Below are positions 2,663 through 26,720 of a DNA stretch of 31,005 nucleotides, piece by piece. Where the stretch lies: contig JAPUKI010000389.1 of the NCBI GenBank assembly GCA_027295745.1, forward strand, positions 1-31,005, written 5' to 3'. Positions within the stretch are counted from its first letter, which is position 1, and each line of letters opens with the position of its first letter. Below the pieces are notes generated by a model. The model made no database searches, was not told the DNA's origin, and saw only the letters and a program-made list of their open reading frames with translations. A program made the position numbers and the translations under genes. The stretch is from Acidobacteriota bacterium (GTDB lineage Bacteria; Acidobacteriota; UBA6911; RPQK01; JADFOI01).

Positions 2663-3105
2663 ACAGCGCAGTTGACACAAACCTGCTACTTTACGCCCAT
2701 AACAGCTCGGTCTCTCAACACTCGGCCGCCAGAGACTTTGTCGAGTCCAGAGTCTTGGCTGTCGGAGAGGAAGAGTTTGTTATCTGTCACCAGACCCTGT
2801 GTGAGCTCTTCGCGGCATTGACCAATTCGATTCTTCTTCCCAATCCCCTCACAACCGAACAGGCCTGGGACGTCTGTCGGATCTATTTGGACCACCCTCT
2901 CATCCAGAAGATTGCCTACGAGCCTGCCATCCTTAAAGTCATTGAATCCTTACTTCGCGATGGACCGCAAAGAGGCAAACGCCTCTTTGATCTCAAACTG
3001 GCGGCGACACTCAGGTATCATCGTGTCAGAAGACTCTATACCTGCAACCCGAAGCATTTTGCCGGCTTTGACTTTCTGGAGGTCGTGCATCCACTAAAAG
3101 GGTGA
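2659..3105 (+). CDS. vapC: PIN-domain ribonuclease toxin, VapC family
   Basis: 148 aa with VDTNLLLYA at the N-terminus, a conserved acidic CELF, LFDLKLAA and TCNPKHF. Coupled to the upstream RHH gene. Confidence 0.85.
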   Translation: MNSAVDTNLLLYAHNSSVSQHSAARDFVESRVLAVGEEEFVICHQTLCELFAALTNSILLPNPLTTEQAWDVCRIYLDHPLIQKIAYEPAILKVIESLLRDGPQRGKRLFDLKLAATLRYHRVRRLYTCNPKHFAGFDFLEVVHPLKG

Positions 3106-3119
3106 AGAGGAAATGTGGA

Positions 3120-3677
3120 TCAACCCGGGATCATGATCCCCGTTTGATCCAGTTCTTCTATGACTTTTTCCCACTTACCGGTGGTCTTGAGCAAAAGATC
3201 CACCACTTCGCGAACTGCCCCGTAGCCGCCTCTTTCACGGGTGACGTAGTGCACGCAATATCTGACGGCTTCCGCTGCGTTGCGCGGTGCTGCCGAAAAG
3301 CCCACCCGCTTCAGCAGTGGAATGTCGGGCAGATCGTCTCCGACATACGCCACTTGCGAGGCTTCCAGGTTTCGCTCCTTCAAGATCTTCTCAAAATCCT
3401 TGACCTTGTCCCTGGAACCCTGGACCAGGAGTTCAACACCCAGCTCGCGGGCTCGAGCCTCGACCTCTTCACTGGTGCGTCCACTGAGAAACCCCACTTC
3501 CCAGCCCACCTTTCCGGCCAGTCGAATTGCCAGGCCATCATAAACTGAAAAGAACTTGATTTCGCCACCATCGGGAAGCAGACCAATTCGCCCGTCCGTC
3601 AATACGCCGTCCACATCCAACAAAATCAGGCGGATCTTCTGAAGGTTAGCCACGACTTGAACAGGTAGTGTTGTCAT
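3120..3677 (-). CDS. kdsC: KDO 8-phosphate phosphatase (HAD family)
   Basis: DVDGVLTDG motif I and YVGDDLPD motif; lies in the kds operon. Confidence 0.93.
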   Translation of the reverse strand: MTTLPVQVVANLQKIRLILLDVDGVLTDGRIGLLPDGGEIKFFSVYDGLAIRLAGKVGWEVGFLSGRTSEEVEARARELGVELLVQGSRDKVKDFEKILKERNLEASQVAYVGDDLPDIPLLKRVGFSAAPRNAAEAVRYCVHYVTRERGGYGAVREVVDLLLKTTGKWEKVIEELDQTGIMIPG

Positions 3678-3680
3678 GAT

Positions 3681-4640
3681 CTAAAACATCTCCGTTCCCC
3701 ACAGGTCATGCAGGTGAATGATGCCGATGAGCCTTCGGGAGGCATCAGTGACCATCAAAGAAGTGATCTTTCGCTGCTCCATGAGGTGGAGCGCACCCGT
3801 GGCCAGCTCATCCTGGCTGATCGTCAGAGGATCTTTCGTCATGCACTGACTTGCGGTGCGGGAGAGAACCTCCTCGCGCTCAGTTTGAAGCAACCTTCGT
3901 ATATCTCCATCTGAGATGACTCCAACCAAACGATCATCGTCTTCCACGACACTGGTAACACCCAGCCCTTTGCGCGACATCTCATAGATGACAGCATCCA
4001 TCCCAGCCTCCACGGTCACTTTGGGAATTTGTTCTCCCTGATGCATCAACTCTCCCACCTTGGCCAGCCTCTTGCCCAGTCTCCCGCCGGGATGCAGACG
4101 GGCAAAGTCCTCCAGATGAAATCCCTTCTTCTCCGACAGGGAAAGGGCCAAAGCGTCGCCCAAAGCCATGGAGGCGGCGGTGGAAGCAGTAGGCGCCAGC
4201 CCAAAGGGACAGGCTTCCTGGTCCACACCAACATCCAGCACCACATCCGCGTTCTGGGCCAGGGTTGAATCGGTATTGCCCACCATTGAGATCAAGGGAA
4301 TACCCAAACGCTTGATGGTCTCCACCAGCTTCACCAGCTCTTCCGTTTCCCCACTATTGGAAAGTGCCAGAACCACATCTCCGGAGACGAGCATCCCCAC
4401 ATCCCCGTGGACTGCTTCTGCCGGGTGAAGAAAAACCGATGGAGTACCGGTGCTGCTCAGTGTGGCCGCAATTTTTCTAGAGACAATGCCCGACTTTCCC
4501 ATACCCGTGACCACCACCCGCCCCTGGCAGTTGGCTAACAACTCCACTGCACCATCAAAGGTTTCGCCCAGCCGCGGGATCAGACTCGCAATGGCGTCCG
4601 CTTCAATTTGGAGAACTCTGCGCCCAGTTTCTTGAGACAT
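3681..4640 (-). CDS. kdsD: Arabinose-5-phosphate isomerase, KpsF/GutQ family (SIS plus 2 CBS domains)
   Basis: GMGKSG, HPAEAVHGD.G, APTASTA and HPGG motifs plus CBS domains. Start moved to ATG 4640 because the upstream extension is translated heptamer repeat. Confidence 0.93.
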   Translation of the reverse strand: MSQETGRRVLQIEADAIASLIPRLGETFDGAVELLANCQGRVVVTGMGKSGIVSRKIAATLSSTGTPSVFLHPAEAVHGDVGMLVSGDVVLALSNSGETEELVKLVETIKRLGIPLISMVGNTDSTLAQNADVVLDVGVDQEACPFGLAPTASTAASMALGDALALSLSEKKGFHLEDFARLHPGGRLGKRLAKVGELMHQGEQIPKVTVEAGMDAVIYEMSRKGLGVTSVVEDDDRLVGVISDGDIRRLLQTEREEVLSRTASQCMTKDPLTISQDELATGALHLMEQRKITSLMVTDASRRLIGIIHLHDLWGTEMF

Positions 4641-21391: not shown

Positions 21392-22458
21392 TTGTCCTGG
21401 GTATTGAGTCCAGCTGTGACGAGACGGCCGCAGCCCTGGTCAGGGACGGCCAAACCATTCTCTCCAGCGTGGTGGCCTCACAAATTCCCATGCACGCCGC
21501 TTTCGGTGGTGTGGTTCCTGAGCTGGCGAGCCGCGAGCACGTCGAGAACATCTGCTTCATCATCGAGAAATGTTTACAGGAGGCAGACATGACCTGGAAG
21601 GACATCACGGCCATTGCAGTGACACGGGGACCGGGCCTAATGGGCGCGCTGATGGTCGGCATGGCTTACGCAAAGGCACTGGCCTTTGCCGTGAAAATTC
21701 CTTTTGTGGGAATAAACCACCTGGAGGGACATCTCTGTTCTATTTTCCTGGATCATCCCGATGCCGAGCTGCCCGCCCTTTCTCTGGTGGTCTCGGGAGG
21801 ACACACCAGCCTCTTTCATCAGAAGGAGCTGGGGAGCTATCAGGAGATTTCCAGAACTCGAGACGATGCTGCCGGAGAAGCCCTGGACAAGCTTTCCAAA
21901 TACTTAGGCTTAGGCTATCCCGGAGGACCGGTCATAGATCGACTGGCGCCTCAAGGGGATCCCCACAGTGTTGCCTTTTCGATACCGAAAATCAGCGACG
22001 GCAGCCTCGATTTCAGCTTCAGTGGGATCAAAACAGCCGCCTTGCGTCACATCAAGCAGCACGATATTTCCCCGCTGAAGCGGAGTGTTTCAGAGAATTC
22101 TGACCTGGTGCCCCAGCCGATTCTGGATCTTCTGGCCAGCTATCAAAGCTCCATTGTGGATCAACTATTGGACCGCTTGAAGAAGGCACTGAGAGGCAGA
22201 GATGTCCGTTCCATCCAAATCTCGGGAGGAGTAGCCGGTAACAGTGAACTGCGCCGGCGCGCCCGGGAATTTTTCCAGGAGCGGGGACTTCCCGTCTACT
22301 ATCCCCGATCCGAGCTGACCACGGATAACGCCGCCATGATAGCGGCTGCTGCTACTGCTCGACTTCAGGCTAAAGCAGCCGACCCCTGGGACCTTCGCCC
22401 CGATCCCAACTTGAAAGTGAGCGCGACGCGCTCACTTTCAAGAAATCACAAATCCTAA
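21388..22458 (+). CDS. tsaD: tRNA N6-threonylcarbamoyladenosine transferase subunit
   Basis: [55 protein letters not shown] and DNAAMI motifs. Confidence 0.97.
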
Positions 22459-22652
22459 ATCCCAAATTCCAAATAAATTCCAAATCATAAATTCCAAATT
22501 CTAAACTCAAAGCATGAAACCCTTCGAAAGACGCGAATGTCGAAATTCTTTAGAGAAATCAGTTGGGAGGTTTCAGAATTGGGATTTGTAAAGTTACCCC
22601 ACTTTCGTGGACAGTTTCTAGTTTGGGTTTTGGGATTTGGAATTTGGAATTT
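22443..22652. repeat. Heptamer tandem-repeat locus F (between convergent tsaD and brx-rhodanese)
   Basis: About nine AAATYCN-type units at 22443-22509 face TTTGGRW units at 22622-22652 (imperfect inverted pair) around a core of about 110 bp. Confidence 0.9.
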
Positions 22653-22686
22653 CAGCTGAAAGCTGACGGTCGTCAGCTTTCAGCTG
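22653..22686. terminator. Perfect 16-bp hairpin between convergent genes; candidate bidirectional terminator or processing site
   Basis: CAGCTGAAAGCTGACG-GT-CGTCAGCTTTCAGCTG. It contains the TGA stop of the minus-strand gene. No long U tract is present. Confidence 0.55.
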
Positions 22687-23428
22687 CCGCCCAAGCTTCA
22701 AAGCCGCCTGAGAGGGTGAAGACGTTTTGGAATCCCTGCGTTCTTAAGAACTGGGTCGTCGTCAGACTCCTCTCGCCATGCTGGCAGTAAACAATGATCT
22801 GGCGATCTCGGGGCCAACTGCTGACGATTTCCTGCCCCAGCTTCTCATCCACCATCAGGGCACCTTCGATCTTTCCCTTCTCGACTTCAGAAGGCATCCG
22901 CAGATCCAGAAGAGTCAGCTCGGAGTTAGCGGAGATCTTCTCCCGGGCTTCCTCCACCGTCATCTGCAGCTCATTCAGGGGATCGAAGATCTCGGCCGAT
23001 TCATCGATCTCTTCCCCGCAGTACCTGTTGTAGGCGCTGGTCAGCATCTTTGTGAGAGCCTCCGCCGTCTGACCCTCTACTTGATGTCTTTCGATCATGT
23101 GCACGAGTCGGCCGTCGCGGAACAGAGCCATGCAGGGGGAAGAGGGAGCATACCCGACGAAACATTCTCTGGCCCGATCCACAGCTTCCACGTCGTTGCC
23201 TGCAAAGGCCGTGGCCAGATTTTGGGGAAGGATCTCATTCTTCAAGGATTCAATGAGTGCAGGCCTGGCTATACCGGCGGCACAGCCACAGATGGAATTA
23301 ATGAAGATCAGATTAGTTGTCTCCTTTTGCCCCACCAGGGCATCCACATCTTCGGCGCTGCTCAATTCCTTGAAACCAGCCTGGGTCATTTCATCGCGCA
23401 TGGGCTGAACCATCACGGGATCGTACAT
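22673..23428 (-). CDS. BrxA/BrxB-family bacilliredoxin fused to a C-terminal rhodanese domain
   Basis: N-domain: INSICGCAAGIARP (CGC motif), FAGND, PSSP, ERHQVEG as in YphP/YqiW. C-domain: DLR..E...G.IEGA, YCQHGERS, LSGGFEAW. AAAGGAGG RBS precedes ATG 23428. Confidence 0.88.
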   Translation of the reverse strand: MYDPVMVQPMRDEMTQAGFKELSSAEDVDALVGQKETTNLIFINSICGCAAGIARPALIESLKNEILPQNLATAFAGNDVEAVDRARECFVGYAPSSPCMALFRDGRLVHMIERHQVEGQTAEALTKMLTSAYNRYCGEEIDESAEIFDPLNELQMTVEEAREKISANSELTLLDLRMPSEVEKGKIEGALMVDEKLGQEIVSSWPRDRQIIVYCQHGERSLTTTQFLRTQGFQNVFTLSGGFEAWAAAES

Positions 23429-23470
23429 AAGCAAATTCCTCCTTTATTCGGTCTAAACATTAGACGAAAC

Positions 23471-23782
23471 TTAGGGTAACTCTATCTTGATATCATCGCC
23501 TTCGACGAGCACCTTATAGGTTCCGACGCCATCCTGAGCGGGTGCCCGCACCACATTACCCGTCTCGAGATCGAACTGAGCACCGTGCCAGGGGCAGGTC
23601 ACGCTGGTAGAACTCACCTCTCCCTGCGACAGAGAGCCTCCAACGTGAGTGCAGGTATCGTCGATGGCGTAGTAAGTTCCCTCAACGTTGAAGAGGGCGA
23701 TCTTCTGCCCATTCACCTCAACACAGAGGGCGTCACCAGGCTTCAAATCCTGCTTCGCTGCTACTTTAGTCGCTTCTCCCAT
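23471..23782 (-). CDS. Rieske (2Fe-2S) ferredoxin
   Basis: 103 aa with CTH-x16-CPWH; AGGAGG RBS 8 nt upstream. Confidence 0.92.
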   Translation of the reverse strand: MGEATKVAAKQDLKPGDALCVEVNGQKIALFNVEGTYYAIDDTCTHVGGSLSQGEVSSTSVTCPWHGAQFDLETGNVVRAPAQDGVGTYKVLVEGDDIKIELP

Positions 23783-23790
23783 TTTTTAGT

Positions 23791-23814
23791 CCTCCTGATT
23801 TACTTTTTATACCA
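23791..23814 (-). promoter_or_regulatory. Extended -10 (TGGTATAAA, 23806-23814) and RBS (AGGAGG, 23791-23796) for the Rieske/brx-rhodanese unit
   Basis: AT-rich intergenic stretch with TG-n-TATAAA; no good -35 at 17-bp spacing. Confidence 0.45.
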
Positions 23815-23858
23815 ATATATCGAAAATCTCATCCTGGGGGAAGCGGGAAACTGAGAAT

Positions 23859-24866
23859 TCATGGATCCAGGGCTGTAGGAGTAAAAGAAAACCAATGGAC
23901 GATGCCATCAGAGCTCACACGGCGCGTGCCCTGAACGTGCTCACGCTTCTGCCTGAACTTTTGTCGAAGGCACCACACTTCACGATAAGCCGGCAGAGAA
24001 CTCCACTCGAAGAGCAGGACATAGGCAAGAATGCCCACATCCCGCATCCACATATGGGGAAAGCAGCGTCTTCGCACCGCTGAGTCGAGGTTCTTCATCC
24101 GCATCAGATAGCGGTTTTTGAGGGAATGGTAATTAATGAGTGGGGGGAGCTGTTTCCTGCCCCGGGGGAGCACCCGACGGCAATGCAGGGCCTCAGCTCG
24201 CGGTTCGTAAACCGCCCTCCAACCTCGCAGCTGAGCCCTCCAGGCCAGATCTGCGTCTTCACGATAGGCAAAGAAGTCTTCATCCAGATACTCATCCCCC
24301 AGGCGCAAATCCTCCAACATTTCTTTTCTGCATAAGAGGGTCGCTCCGGTGATACCGAAAACGAGTTGACGAAGATCATACTGTCCGCGGTCTTCTTCTT
24401 CACTGCCCCGGTCAAAATGTCTTTGAGAAGGAGTGAAGAACATCCCGGTGCTATCCAGAACTGGAAAGGCCTCCCGAAAAACCTGGCGTCCTTCCGTATT
24501 CATCCGATACAGTTTTCCCCCTGCCATCCCGGCATTTTCAACCTCATTCAGGGCCCCCACAAGCACCTCCAGATAGTTGAGCTGCAAAATGACGTCTGCA
24601 TTGAGAAGCAGGGCAGTGTCGAAATCCTCACCCAGAAGGTTGTGGTTGTGGCCAAAACTGTAGCCGCGATTTTCCGTCGATTCATGCAATTGGACTCCAT
24701 AGCTGCGAGCAATGTCTAGAGTCCCATCGTGAGAATCGTTATCAAAGAGCTTCACACGCACATCAATGGTTTGTCTTTGCACCGCCTCCAGGCAACGAGC
24801 TAGAAAAGACTCGTCATTGTATGTGACCAGGCTCACCAGGACCGGACCTCTGCTTGCGGTGTTCAT
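23859..24866 (-). CDS. Glycosyltransferase family 2
   Basis: LVTYN, DNDSHDG, NRGYSFGHN, LLNAD, GATLLCR and FAYREDADL motifs. Start at ATG 24866 overlaps the upstream stop (ATGA). Confidence 0.9.
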   Translation of the reverse strand: MNTASRGPVLVSLVTYNDESFLARCLEAVQRQTIDVRVKLFDNDSHDGTLDIARSYGVQLHESTENRGYSFGHNHNLLGEDFDTALLLNADVILQLNYLEVLVGALNEVENAGMAGGKLYRMNTEGRQVFREAFPVLDSTGMFFTPSQRHFDRGSEEEDRGQYDLRQLVFGITGATLLCRKEMLEDLRLGDEYLDEDFFAYREDADLAWRAQLRGWRAVYEPRAEALHCRRVLPRGRKQLPPLINYHSLKNRYLMRMKNLDSAVRRRCFPHMWMRDVGILAYVLLFEWSSLPAYREVWCLRQKFRQKREHVQGTRRVSSDGIVHWFSFTPTALDP

Positions 24867-25745: not shown

Positions 25746-26720
25746 TTAGTGCCCCCTCAAGTTCTGGAGCTCCTCACCCAGTTGGGTAACCCCCTGCAGA
25801 TGCCTTGCTCCGATCTCCTGGACAACTTCACGGTAGCTCCAGGCAGATCTGCCGCCCACCAGCAATGAGATAGGATCCTCCAAATGGCGGCGGAGCTTCC
25901 CCAGCTCTTCCGGCAGCTGGGGGTCATCAGGCGGATAAACAATGCTGAGATCAACCGCTCGAGCTCCCTTCTGCTGGGCCGCAGCTGCGATTTCTTCAGC
26001 CGAGAGGCTGGTACCCAGATAAGTAACACACCAGCCCAGCGATGCAGCTGTGGCAGCCACCATCCGAGCACCCACCTCGTGAAATTGTCGCACAGGTGTT
26101 GCAACCACCAATTGAGGCGCCCCTTCCGGCACCTCACATCCCGCTGGCAGCCCCGACAGAAACGAACACGTGACCGCACAGGCCATATGCTCATGGGCCA
26201 CCCTCAGAGATCCCTGGTCCCACTGCTCCCCGACCTCTTCCATCAATGGGACCAGGACACCTTCCATGAGCTGAGGTTGACTTAAGTCGACCGCGGCAGG
26301 TTCGAGCAGGATCGCCAGCTCACCGGCCTCGAGTTCCTGAACGGCCCACAGGCAGGCAGCTAAATGCTGCTCGGCATTCGCTTTCTGAACAACCTCCTGG
26401 CGAGTTCTGAGGTGCGGGGTGGCGCTTCGATCTGCCACCACCAATTCCTCCAGCTCCGCATGATTGAGCTGAGCCACCTGAGAGATTCTGCGCCCACCTT
26501 CAATCGCCTGACGCAAGAAAAGAAGTTTTTCTATGTCTGCATCCGAGTAAACGCGCCGATTTCCAGAGGACCGGGCAGGACTCACTGCACTGTAGCGCTT
26601 TTCCCAGGCACGCAGGACATCCGGTTTCAAACCTGTGCGCCGGAACACCACGCCAATGGGATGACGGGGTTGGTGGTAAAGCGAGTCAGTCGGCTGTGAG
26701 CTCATAGAAGATGTCCTCAT
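25746..26720 (-). CDS. MerR-family regulator with a cobalamin-binding domain (CarH/LitR-like)
   Basis: MerR HTH with WEKRY and R..GNRRVYS; W-x9-EH (WDQGSLRVAHEH); QxHxxG-x41-SxV-x27-GG B12 motif. Alternative start at 26705. Confidence 0.85.
   Translation of the reverse strand: MRTSSMSSQPTDSLYHQPRHPIGVVFRRTGLKPDVLRAWEKRYSAVSPARSSGNRRVYSDADIEKLLFLRQAIEGGRRISQVAQLNHAELEELVVADRSATPHLRTRQEVVQKANAEQHLAACLWAVQELEAGELAILLEPAAVDLSQPQLMEGVLVPLMEEVGEQWDQGSLRVAHEHMACAVTCSFLSGLPAGCEVPEGAPQLVVATPVRQFHEVGARMVAATAASLGWCVTYLGTSLSAEEIAAAAQQKGARAVDLSIVYPPDDPQLPEELGKLRRHLEDPISLLVGGRSAWSYREVVQEIGARHLQGVTQLGEELQNLRGH

Follow-up and report, generated by a model that had tools for sequence, protein, structure and literature searches.

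The stretch of DNA analysed here (the window; 31,005 nucleotides (nt), contig JAPUKI010000389.1 of the Acidobacteriota bacterium assembly GCA_027295745.1, positions 1 to 31,005 of the forward strand) carries on its reverse strand a two-gene unit, in which the gene of a small soluble Rieske-type [2Fe-2S] protein is followed by that of a bacilliredoxin (Brx) fused to a rhodanese domain (Table 1). An initial annotation, made from the sequence alone, had described the second gene as a single open reading frame (ORF) of 251 amino acids (aa) joining a BrxA/B domain with a CGC motif to a rhodanese domain with an intact active-site cysteine (CQHGERS), and both the profile searches and the reading of the motifs bear this description out. 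Residues 2-137 matched PF06491 with 183 bits (E 4e-54; cut-off 25) and the NCBIfam BrxA/BrxB family TIGR04191 with 181 bits (cut-off 100; profile positions 1-136 of 136), residues 157-249 matched PF00581 (Rhodanese) with 65.7 bits (cut-off 22.2; profile positions 1-102 of 102), and PF06491 and PF00581 were the only families returned by the Pfam search. Translation was taken to start at an ATG preceded, at 9-nt spacing, by the ribosome-binding site (RBS) AAGGAGG; all fusion homologues start with MYDP, and a TTG two codons upstream was rejected because it lies too near the RBS. Where the homologues are named at NCBI, they bear the label "BrxA/BrxB family bacilliredoxin [Acidobacteriota bacterium]".

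Alignment of 55 fusions, down to 44% identity, showed that C47 and C49 of the CGC motif are invariant, as they are in 24 stand-alone Brx proteins, and that C215 of the rhodanese domain is likewise invariant, with H217 and R220 conserved at 90% or more. The linker between the domains (GEEIDESxEIxDP) is conserved among the fusions and missing from the stand-alone proteins. The C-terminal cysteine typical of the BrxA/B family is also present (Cys137); the idea that it might be a third cysteine peculiar to the fusions was dropped, as stand-alone Brx proteins conserve it too. The rhodanese loop, C215-Q-H-G-E-R220, is a six-residue CX4R loop of the sulfurtransferase type, a loop which Bordo and Bork reportedly set apart, in 2002, from the seven-residue CX5R loop of Cdc25/Acr2; an arsenate-reductase or Cdc25-type function was rejected for the domain, since its loop is CX4R rather than CX5R.

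An AlphaFold2 model of the fusion (predicted local distance difference test, pLDDT, 92.3; predicted template modelling score, pTM, 0.78) was compared with solved structures by means of Foldseek. The N-terminal domain matched Bacillus subtilis YphP (3fhk; 49% identity, template modelling score (TM) 0.85, E 3e-15) and the mixed disulfide of Staphylococcus aureus BrxA with bacillithiol (7rzb; TM 0.93), and the C-terminal domain matched Escherichia coli GlpE (1gmx; TM 0.78), human TSTD1 (6bev) and the rhodanese domains of CoA-persulfide reductases; among these structure matches, no solved chain spans both domains. Against the GlpE equivalog NF001195, the rhodanese domain scored 55.9 bits, below the cut-off of 102; it has a GlpE-like fold, yet is no GlpE orthologue. 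By sequence and fold criteria, the fusion is a member of the BrxA/B family with a variant architecture, 251 aa long with a rhodanese domain added. Both of its domains are complete and hold their catalytic cysteines, and the alignments indicate that both active sites are under purifying conservation.

Table 1. Features of the Rieske-fusion locus (positions in the window).
Feature	Position	Strand	Basis
Rieske-type [2Fe-2S] protein, coding sequence, soluble, 103 aa	23471..23782	-	PF00355 match, alignment of 15 orthologues
Spacer between Rieske and fusion genes, 42 nt, holding the fusion RBS AAGGAGG (23438-23444)	23429..23470	-	sequence
Bacilliredoxin-rhodanese fusion, coding sequence, 251 aa (stop codon 22673-22675)	22673..23428	-	ORF, Pfam and NCBIfam matches
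BrxA/B domain (PF06491, TIGR04191), residues 2-137	23018..23425	-	profile and fold match
Fusion-specific linker, residues 138-156 (GEEIDESxEIxDP...)	22961..23017	-	alignments
Single-domain rhodanese, residues 157-249	22682..22960	-	profile and fold match
CGC active site, C47-G48-C49	23282-23290	-	read from sequence
Rhodanese catalytic loop C215-QHGE-R220 (CQHGERS)	22769-22786; C215 codon 22784-22786	-	read from sequence
Rieske upstream region, candidate promoter/operator of the two-gene unit	23783..23858	-	conserved element and RBS
Rieske RBS AGGAGG	23791-23796	-	sequence
Conserved element GATTTTCGATATATTGGTATAAAAAGTA	23801-23828	-	family alignment A5
Perfect 16-bp inverted repeat, 2-nt loop, overlapping the fusion stop codon	22653..22686	.	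inverted-repeat search

A search of 5.8 billion proteins yielded approximately 95 protein clusters (at 90% identity) that share both Pfam domains, with lengths of 241-272 aa and identities of 45-99%. The distribution of the fusion was taken from genome searches at the level of the order and of the phylum, the tallies taking in the unpublished genome G049; none of the individual findings depends on that genome or on G024. Full-length fusions were present in 10 of 401 genomes sampled across the phylum, all 10 in the window's order, and single-domain Brx proteins in approximately 200 other genomes of this sample. Within the order, 27 of 61 genomes carry the fusion; by group, these include 11/11 genomes of the window's own family (f1), 5/5 of genus g13, 3/9 of g6 and 3/3 of g9, and the fusion also occurs once in each of four further families. 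Among the genomes searched, it was restricted to the window's own order. A contig scan with the fusion alignment was dominated by single-domain Brx proteins (1 fusion in the best 80 of 600 matches), and a second, more distant fusion clade was found in metagenomes, with 45-50% identity and a rhodanese tail reading ...IDxxIPxY. The fusion is thus not peculiar to one assembly, a circumstance which the initial annotation had listed among those fatal to its proposal (approximately 95 clusters and 27/61 order genomes). An assembly artefact, in which two genes would have been joined by the loss of a stop codon or within a chimeric contig, can be dismissed, as the one thing that speaks for it is that the window's genome is a fragmented metagenome-assembled genome (MAG; 436 contigs, 5.8% contamination), against which stand the same architecture, of 247-260 aa, in the clusters from independent samples and in the closed or near-closed genomes G112, G393 and G406, the conserved linker and the confident two-domain model. 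In a tree of the Brx domain (unrooted and with a limited outgroup), the 55 fusions all fell on one side of a 100/99 branch that separates them from the 24 closest stand-alone Brx proteins, a topology that fits one fusion event at the origin of the architecture.

Shortened forms of the protein were also encountered. Genome G230 contains two identical fusion copies which end right after the linker (residue 151), each as a Brx-only ORF of 165 aa (L135 (G230:C3:1221500-1227500), 2909-3406; G230:C6:2733351-2733806). They resemble the products of repeated insertion or duplication, and the protein database holds similar Brx-only forms of 158-180 aa (P0075, P0079, P0080 and P0091). A split form in this genome, with Brx and rhodanese as adjacent genes, was considered and rejected, the copies being truncated with no rhodanese ORF behind them.

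As regards the thiol system of the host, for which the initial annotation had proposed a check of bshA, bshB, bshC and bdr, the window's genome (G000; 88% complete) encodes BshA (555 bits), BshB1 (271), BshC (432) and YpdA/Bdr (436), all above the NCBIfam cut-offs, and bshA adjoins bshB1. PF06491 matched nothing but the fusion in this genome, and the same is true of G327, of G124 and of G112, a closed genome from the window's genus; BrxC was not found in G000. The gene content thus indicates that the fusion is the bacilliredoxin of these organisms rather than an accessory copy. Two above-cut-off matches to the BshC family occur in G000 (G000:C416:11255-12841 and G000:C227:1990-3243), one of them full-length and the other ended by a contig edge; they may be paralogues or reflect contamination of the bin (5.8%).

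The partner gene was checked against the class of soluble Rieske-type ferredoxins (PF00355/PF22543; ligand set CxH...CxxH). Its product matched PF00355 with 81.9 bits, and the ligands C44, H46, C63 and H66 are invariant in 15 orthologues. Against HcaC (NF007422/NF042948), AndAb and NirD, it scored 95.2, 87, 71.7 and 62.5, respectively (cut-offs 113, 150, 150 and 74.65), and neither an oxygenase nor a nitrite reductase gene was seen in the Rieske neighbourhoods inspected. A role as ferredoxin of a ring-hydroxylating dioxygenase was discarded on both counts, scores below the equivalog cut-offs and no oxygenase nearby. In all 11 genomes of family f1, the fusion gene is immediately preceded, in the same orientation, by a Rieske orthologue (54-92% identical), at 24-149 nt in the ten others and, exactly as initially annotated, at 42 nt in the window. 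The surroundings of the pair vary: (i) in the window, in G112 and in the P0039 contig, it comes after two family 2 glycosyltransferase (GT2) genes, (ii) tsaD and the pair run towards each other in the window and in G112, (iii) in the P0039 contig, an epimerase gene and an IF-2B gene stand between the pair and tsaD, (iv) in the P0002 contig, the pair comes after tsaD in the same direction and is hence inverted relative to its flanks, and (v) in the P0010 contig, it is found between nuoA/B-ferredoxin genes and selO. The linkage of Rieske and fusion genes is strong, with three flanking contexts and one inversion relative to tsaD, yet it is a family-level one; the co-occurrence that the initial annotation had proposed to test holds throughout f1 and fails in most other fusion families, where no orthologue of this Rieske protein was detected. 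Upstream of the two GT2 genes, the window also encodes, at 25746-26720 (-), a regulator with a MerR-type helix-turn-helix (HTH) and a B12-binding domain (CarH-like, light- or B12-responsive), and the arrangement of MerR-HTH/B12-binding, two GT2 and Rieske genes recurs in the P0039 contig.

The strong RBSs that had been assigned to both genes are indeed there. The promoter of their own which the two were thought to share fared less well, for a scan of 22400-24000 revealed no sigma-70 consensus promoter; nevertheless, an AT-rich element, GATTTTC-N10-GGTATAAAAAGTA, is kept upstream of the Rieske gene in 9/11 family genomes although the flanks differ, and this conservation fits a dedicated control region. 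Five of the nine genomes with the element share a leader of approximately 60 nt, which the window and G112 lack.

Newly seen here is a third gene that joins the fusion/Rieske neighbourhood in related genomes, outside this window, and encodes a predicted Fe-S cluster carrier of the Mrp/ApbC/NBP35 type, called from the combination of a DUF59 domain with a NUBPL-type P-loop NTPase. The Mrp neighbours (L133, L136, L138 and L140) matched PF10609 with 340-348 bits and PF01883 (DUF59) with 75-78 bits; across the order, Mrp is otherwise found as one housekeeping copy per genome, in 58/61 genomes. Its linkage takes several forms: (i) a second fusion copy of G230 stands in the order sigma-70, Rieske (63% identical to the window's), Mrp/ApbC, fusion, ketoacyl synthase, (ii) in G406 and in the P0021 contigs, the fusion is divergent from an Mrp gene followed by a DUF971 gene, 144 nt apart, (iii) contig C343 of G421 has Mrp after the fusion in the same direction, and this fusion represents another lineage than that of G406, since the two are only 59% identical, (iv) in G408, Mrp is followed by a Rieske orthologue (74% identical) and the fusion lies at another site, and (v) a second, frameshifted Mrp copy of G407 is found at a distance of 3.5 kb from the fusion. 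All three pairwise adjacencies of Rieske, Mrp and fusion, and the triple as well, were seen in different orientations, and Rieske or Mrp lies within 5 kb of the fusion in 14/27 fusion genomes, belonging to 4/8 families. In G406, a decayed copy of the fusion additionally comes after a Rieske orthologue (71% identical) (L137 (G406:C1:1899500-1906500), 3011-4155); the copy covers Brx profile positions 39-136 only, with a rhodanese fragment and an internal TAG, and the intact fusion of this genome is the one beside Mrp elsewhere.

Of the two roles put forward initially, Fe-S repair receives some support from the recurrent linkage to Mrp/ApbC. Sulfide detoxification receives none from gene context: genes for sulfide:quinone oxidoreductase (SQR), persulfide dioxygenase, Sox, TusA/DsrE or sulfate/thiosulfate assimilation were absent from the approximately 20 neighbourhoods inspected.

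Outside the order, we noted the surroundings of stand-alone Brx genes. A SufT-like DUF59 (PF01883) gene lies directly upstream of Brx in 3/66 loci from other phyla, two of which, L023 and L061 (Bacteroidota), were confirmed by tblastn, and one Brx locus has a class-V aminotransferase gene upstream. In a Gemmatimonadota MAG (L045, 3239-7562), a Rieske gene (51% identical to the window's) is followed by a 4Fe-4S ferredoxin gene on one strand, and a MarR gene is followed by a stand-alone Brx gene on the other; a convergent 546-aa nitroreductase-like gene comes after Brx, and a similar large gene is present near the fusion in the P0051 contig. The SufT-like, aminotransferase and L045 loci can be read as faint echoes of the Fe-S linkage. 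In 23 Flavobacteriales-type loci, a gene for a TerB-DnaJ protein is found upstream of Brx, nearly always on the opposite strand.

No description of the Brx-rhodanese architecture, nor of a Rieske/Mrp neighbourhood, was found in the literature searched, full text included. The statement that the architecture had not been characterised can accordingly stand for this particular pairing, redoxin-rhodanese fusions as a class being already known. With BrxA (YphP) and BrxB (YqiW) of B. subtilis and S. aureus, the protein shares a full-length domain, the CGC motif, the C-terminal cysteine, the fold and a host equipped with bshA/B/C and bdr. Described BrxA/B proteins are single-domain (PMC8301015, PMC10950700) and approximately 140-150 aa long, whereas the fusion, at 251 aa, adds the linker and a rhodanese of catalytic type. 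It further differs in belonging to Acidobacteriota rather than Firmicutes, in being the sole bacilliredoxin and in its linkage to Rieske and Mrp. The likeness to GlpE and TSTD1 lies in the fold of the C-terminal domain and its six-residue cysteine loop, and GlpE is said to interact with thioredoxin (a finding ascribed to Ray et al., 2000, in PMC4618214). In those systems, the persulfide is resolved by a redoxin that is a separate protein (PMC11763069); the same chemistry is proposed for the fusion, which would differ in having donor and acceptor on one polypeptide, the acceptor being a redoxin of the bacillithiol system.

Natural fusions of glutaredoxin (Grx) with mercaptopyruvate sulfurtransferase (MST) have been mentioned (PMC11763069), and the ESM Atlas holds clusters of Grx-, thioredoxin (Trx)- and AhpC-rhodanese proteins, whose match scores of 0.76-0.81 make them analogues rather than shown relatives; one Grx-rhodanese cluster carries an Fe-S_biosyn domain (A-type Fe-S carrier) on 16% of its members, which we take as a lead only. 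These proteins resemble the fusion in tethering a thioredoxin-fold oxidoreductase, matched to the thiol system of the host, to a rhodanese, but their redoxin is of the CxxC Trx/Grx type instead of the CxC DUF1094 (PF06491) type seen here, their thiol and phylum differ as well, and they are themselves largely uncharacterised. The CoA-disulfide reductase-rhodanese proteins (CoADR-RHD), Npsr and CoA-persulfide reductase (3ict, 3nt6 and 8a56) likewise combine a thiol-redox enzyme with a C-terminal persulfide rhodanese (PMC5790435), and the rhodanese domains of CoADR-RHD-type structures superpose on that of the fusion (Foldseek ranks 10-18); they use CoA and possess their own FAD/NAD(P)H reductase domain, whereas the fusion is without a flavin domain and would rely on bacillithiol together with a separate Bdr. 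In S. aureus CstB and the persulfide dioxygenase-rhodanese fusion (PRF) of Burkholderia (5ve3), a rhodanese is fused to a thiol-persulfide enzyme, and CstB takes bacillithiol persulfide (PMC5790435). The Brx-rhodanese protein, in contrast, has no metallo-beta-lactamase/dioxygenase domain, its proposed chemistry would be reductive or one of transfer rather than oxidative, and no sqr or cst (CstA/CstB-type) genes were seen at the fusion neighbourhoods inspected. Since it is without the flavin or dioxygenase domains that define them, the fusion falls outside the CoADR-RHD/Npsr and CstB/PRF families; by comparison of domains, it is best described as a functional analogue of both and a member of neither. 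A precedent for a lineage-specific bacilliredoxin outside Firmicutes, having a C-terminal domain and working with bacillithiol and Bdr, is AbxC of Deinococcus radiodurans (PMC8301015), which differs in being a monothiol protein of the BrxC/DUF2847 family with a colicin-immunity-like extension rather than a rhodanese (PMC8301015).

From these observations, we infer that the fusion may act as a bacillithiol-linked persulfide reductase/sulfurtransferase in the service of Fe-S cluster assembly or repair, a reading we hold tentatively, at somewhat less than an even chance. In this scheme, the two-gene unit, Rieske followed by Brx-rhodanese, would encode the lineage's only BrxA/B-type bacilliredoxin as a bifunctional enzyme. 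Cys215 would accept sulfane sulfur and carry it as a persulfide, the donor being thiosulfate, a cysteine desulfurase or a protein that bears a persulfide, and the Cys215 persulfide would be resolved either by the tethered CGC site or by bacillithiol in a Brx-catalysed step. The product would be either sulfide along with oxidised or bacillithiolated Brx (Brx-SSB), to be recycled by bacillithiol and Bdr/NADPH, or bacillithiol persulfide. The resulting supply of sulfide, or a thiol-redox service, would go to the assembly, transfer or repair of Fe-S clusters, with the Rieske protein acting as one-electron donor or as client, and ordinary de-bacillithiolation is presumably retained. Fe-S clusters are, in our view, the most likely destination, given that genes for Mrp/ApbC and for a small Rieske protein recur beside that of the fusion. 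Bacillithiol-deficient S. aureus resembles an Fe-S carrier mutant, and the electron donors of SUF-type synthesis and repair are unknown (PMC8593673).

Several points weigh against an Fe-S role. Every chemical step of the scheme is an inference. Mrp carriers usually hold [4Fe-4S] clusters and the neighbour is a [2Fe-2S] Rieske protein; moreover, a Rieske centre carries one electron, whereas thiol/persulfide chemistry needs two. In the window's own genus, Mrp is remote, being separated from the pair by 2.6 Mb in G112 and occupying a different contig in G000. In 13/27 fusion genomes (f5, f7, most of g13 and G404), neither Rieske nor Mrp is found near the fusion, which is flanked by unrelated genes (truB, methyltransferase, CDP-alcohol transferase and sulfatase). 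No Rieske orthologue (E<1e-20) was detected in most of the other fusion lineages (g6, g9, most of g13 and G404), and one is present in G402, where the fusion query found no Brx. Finally, the adjacencies of Rieske, Mrp and fusion occur in related genomes and may all descend from one ancestral cluster instead of being independent.

The alternative that survives best, though we consider it rather unlikely, is that of a general housekeeping enzyme of sulfane sulfur, i.e. a bacillithiol-dependent thiosulfate/persulfide sulfurtransferase or depersulfidase with no special tie to Fe-S clusters. The task of such an enzyme would be to assimilate thiosulfate, to clear persulfides of bacillithiol or of proteins, or to take part in signalling by H2S, and the neighbouring Rieske and Mrp genes would be remnants of ancestral synteny. 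This alternative follows the same domain logic as the Fe-S role and would accommodate the half of the fusion genomes in which no Fe-S-related neighbour was seen; Trx-, Grx- and AhpC-rhodanese fusions are widespread in other phyla (ESM Atlas; PMC11763069), and thioredoxin-like proteins of S. aureus reduce protein persulfides (PMC6196236). On the other hand, none of the approximately 20 neighbourhoods inspected contained a gene of sulfide oxidation or thiosulfate assimilation, and the pair survives rearrangements and Mrp is linked in three orientations, a pattern which drift alone explains poorly.

A bolder form of the Fe-S role, to which we assign a low probability, is that Rieske, Mrp/ApbC and the fusion together constitute an unrecognised bacillithiol-based module for the formation or repair of Fe-S clusters. 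The rhodanese would then deliver sulfane sulfur, which Brx together with bacillithiol would reduce to sulfide; alternatively, Brx might itself bind a [2Fe-2S] cluster and pass it on, in the way that monothiol glutaredoxins use glutathione. Single electrons, for instance for reductive coupling on Mrp, would come from the Rieske centre. Such a module, if true, would offer a molecular route for bacillithiol's unexplained role in Fe-S maturation; it would also suggest what the missing electron donor of systems other than ISC might be.

Improbable, in our judgement, is the proposal that the fusion is reduced by the Rieske protein, which would make the fusion a ferredoxin-driven bacilliredoxin/persulfide reductase bypassing or supplementing bacillithiol/Bdr; it takes the electron-partner option of the initial annotation as the core function. 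The tight co-directional adjacency (24-149 nt) in 11/11 family genomes and three flanking contexts would agree with it, as would the 4Fe-4S ferredoxin gene that accompanies Rieske both in the P0010 contig and in L045 of Gemmatimonadota. Rieske centres are, however, not known to reduce CxC disulfides, and one-electron chemistry is ordinarily coupled to two-electron chemistry through a cluster or flavin dedicated to this purpose, ferredoxin:thioredoxin reductase being an example. Furthermore, the genes for Bdr and bacillithiol are present, so that a reductant already exists, and most other fusion families are without a Rieske orthologue altogether. The predicted complex of the fusion with the Rieske protein received a score of 0.05, a value that has no bearing on binding either way.

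We hold similarly little belief in an ordinary bacilliredoxin whose rhodanese performs no sulfur transfer and is instead a docking, regulatory or redox-sensing module, or a protective built-in site of S-bacillithiolation. Non-catalytic rhodanese domains are common (Bordo and Bork, 2002, as cited in PMC11763069), several genomes have no Brx other than the fusion, which must there cover general de-bacillithiolation, and G230 has kept its Brx-only truncations. The cysteine is typically lost from inactive rhodanese domains, however, and here the catalytic cysteine is invariant, and the histidine and arginine of the loop nearly so, across the 55 fusions.

To our knowledge, the redoxins of bacillithiol have been known only as single-domain de-bacillithiolases of Firmicutes. 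Here, an acidobacterial order appears to have wired its sole bacilliredoxin directly to a persulfide carrier, the rhodanese. Bacillithiol may rank among the most widespread bacterial thiols (PMC6282198), and the locus provides a handle on two questions, namely the part of bacillithiol in Fe-S maturation and the origin of electrons and reduced sulfur outside ISC. Being small, soluble and predicted to fold well, and having two defined partners, the fusion would be a compact handle on bacillithiol-dependent persulfide chemistry. Even if the link to Fe-S clusters were to fail, it would remain the equivalent, for bacillithiol, of the Trx/Grx-rhodanese and CoA-persulfide-reductase systems, and persulfide biology would thereby come to include a third thiol system.

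Two further observations concern the 3' side of the fusion gene. In two genomes of genus g13 (L102, 436-1266; L103, 2637-3494), a class-I S-adenosylmethionine (SAM) methyltransferase gene (Methyltransf_11) lies directly 3' of the fusion on the same strand. In the window, the terminator scan of 22400-24000 reported nothing at the gene ends, including the 16-bp inverted repeat, which no T-tract follows; this repeat may be a terminator common to the fusion and the convergent tsaD. The interval between these two genes (22440-22686) contains runs of a 7-nt repeat (AAATTCC-like), inverted, with arms of 32 nt that are 81% complementary, and after them the 16-bp inverted repeat.

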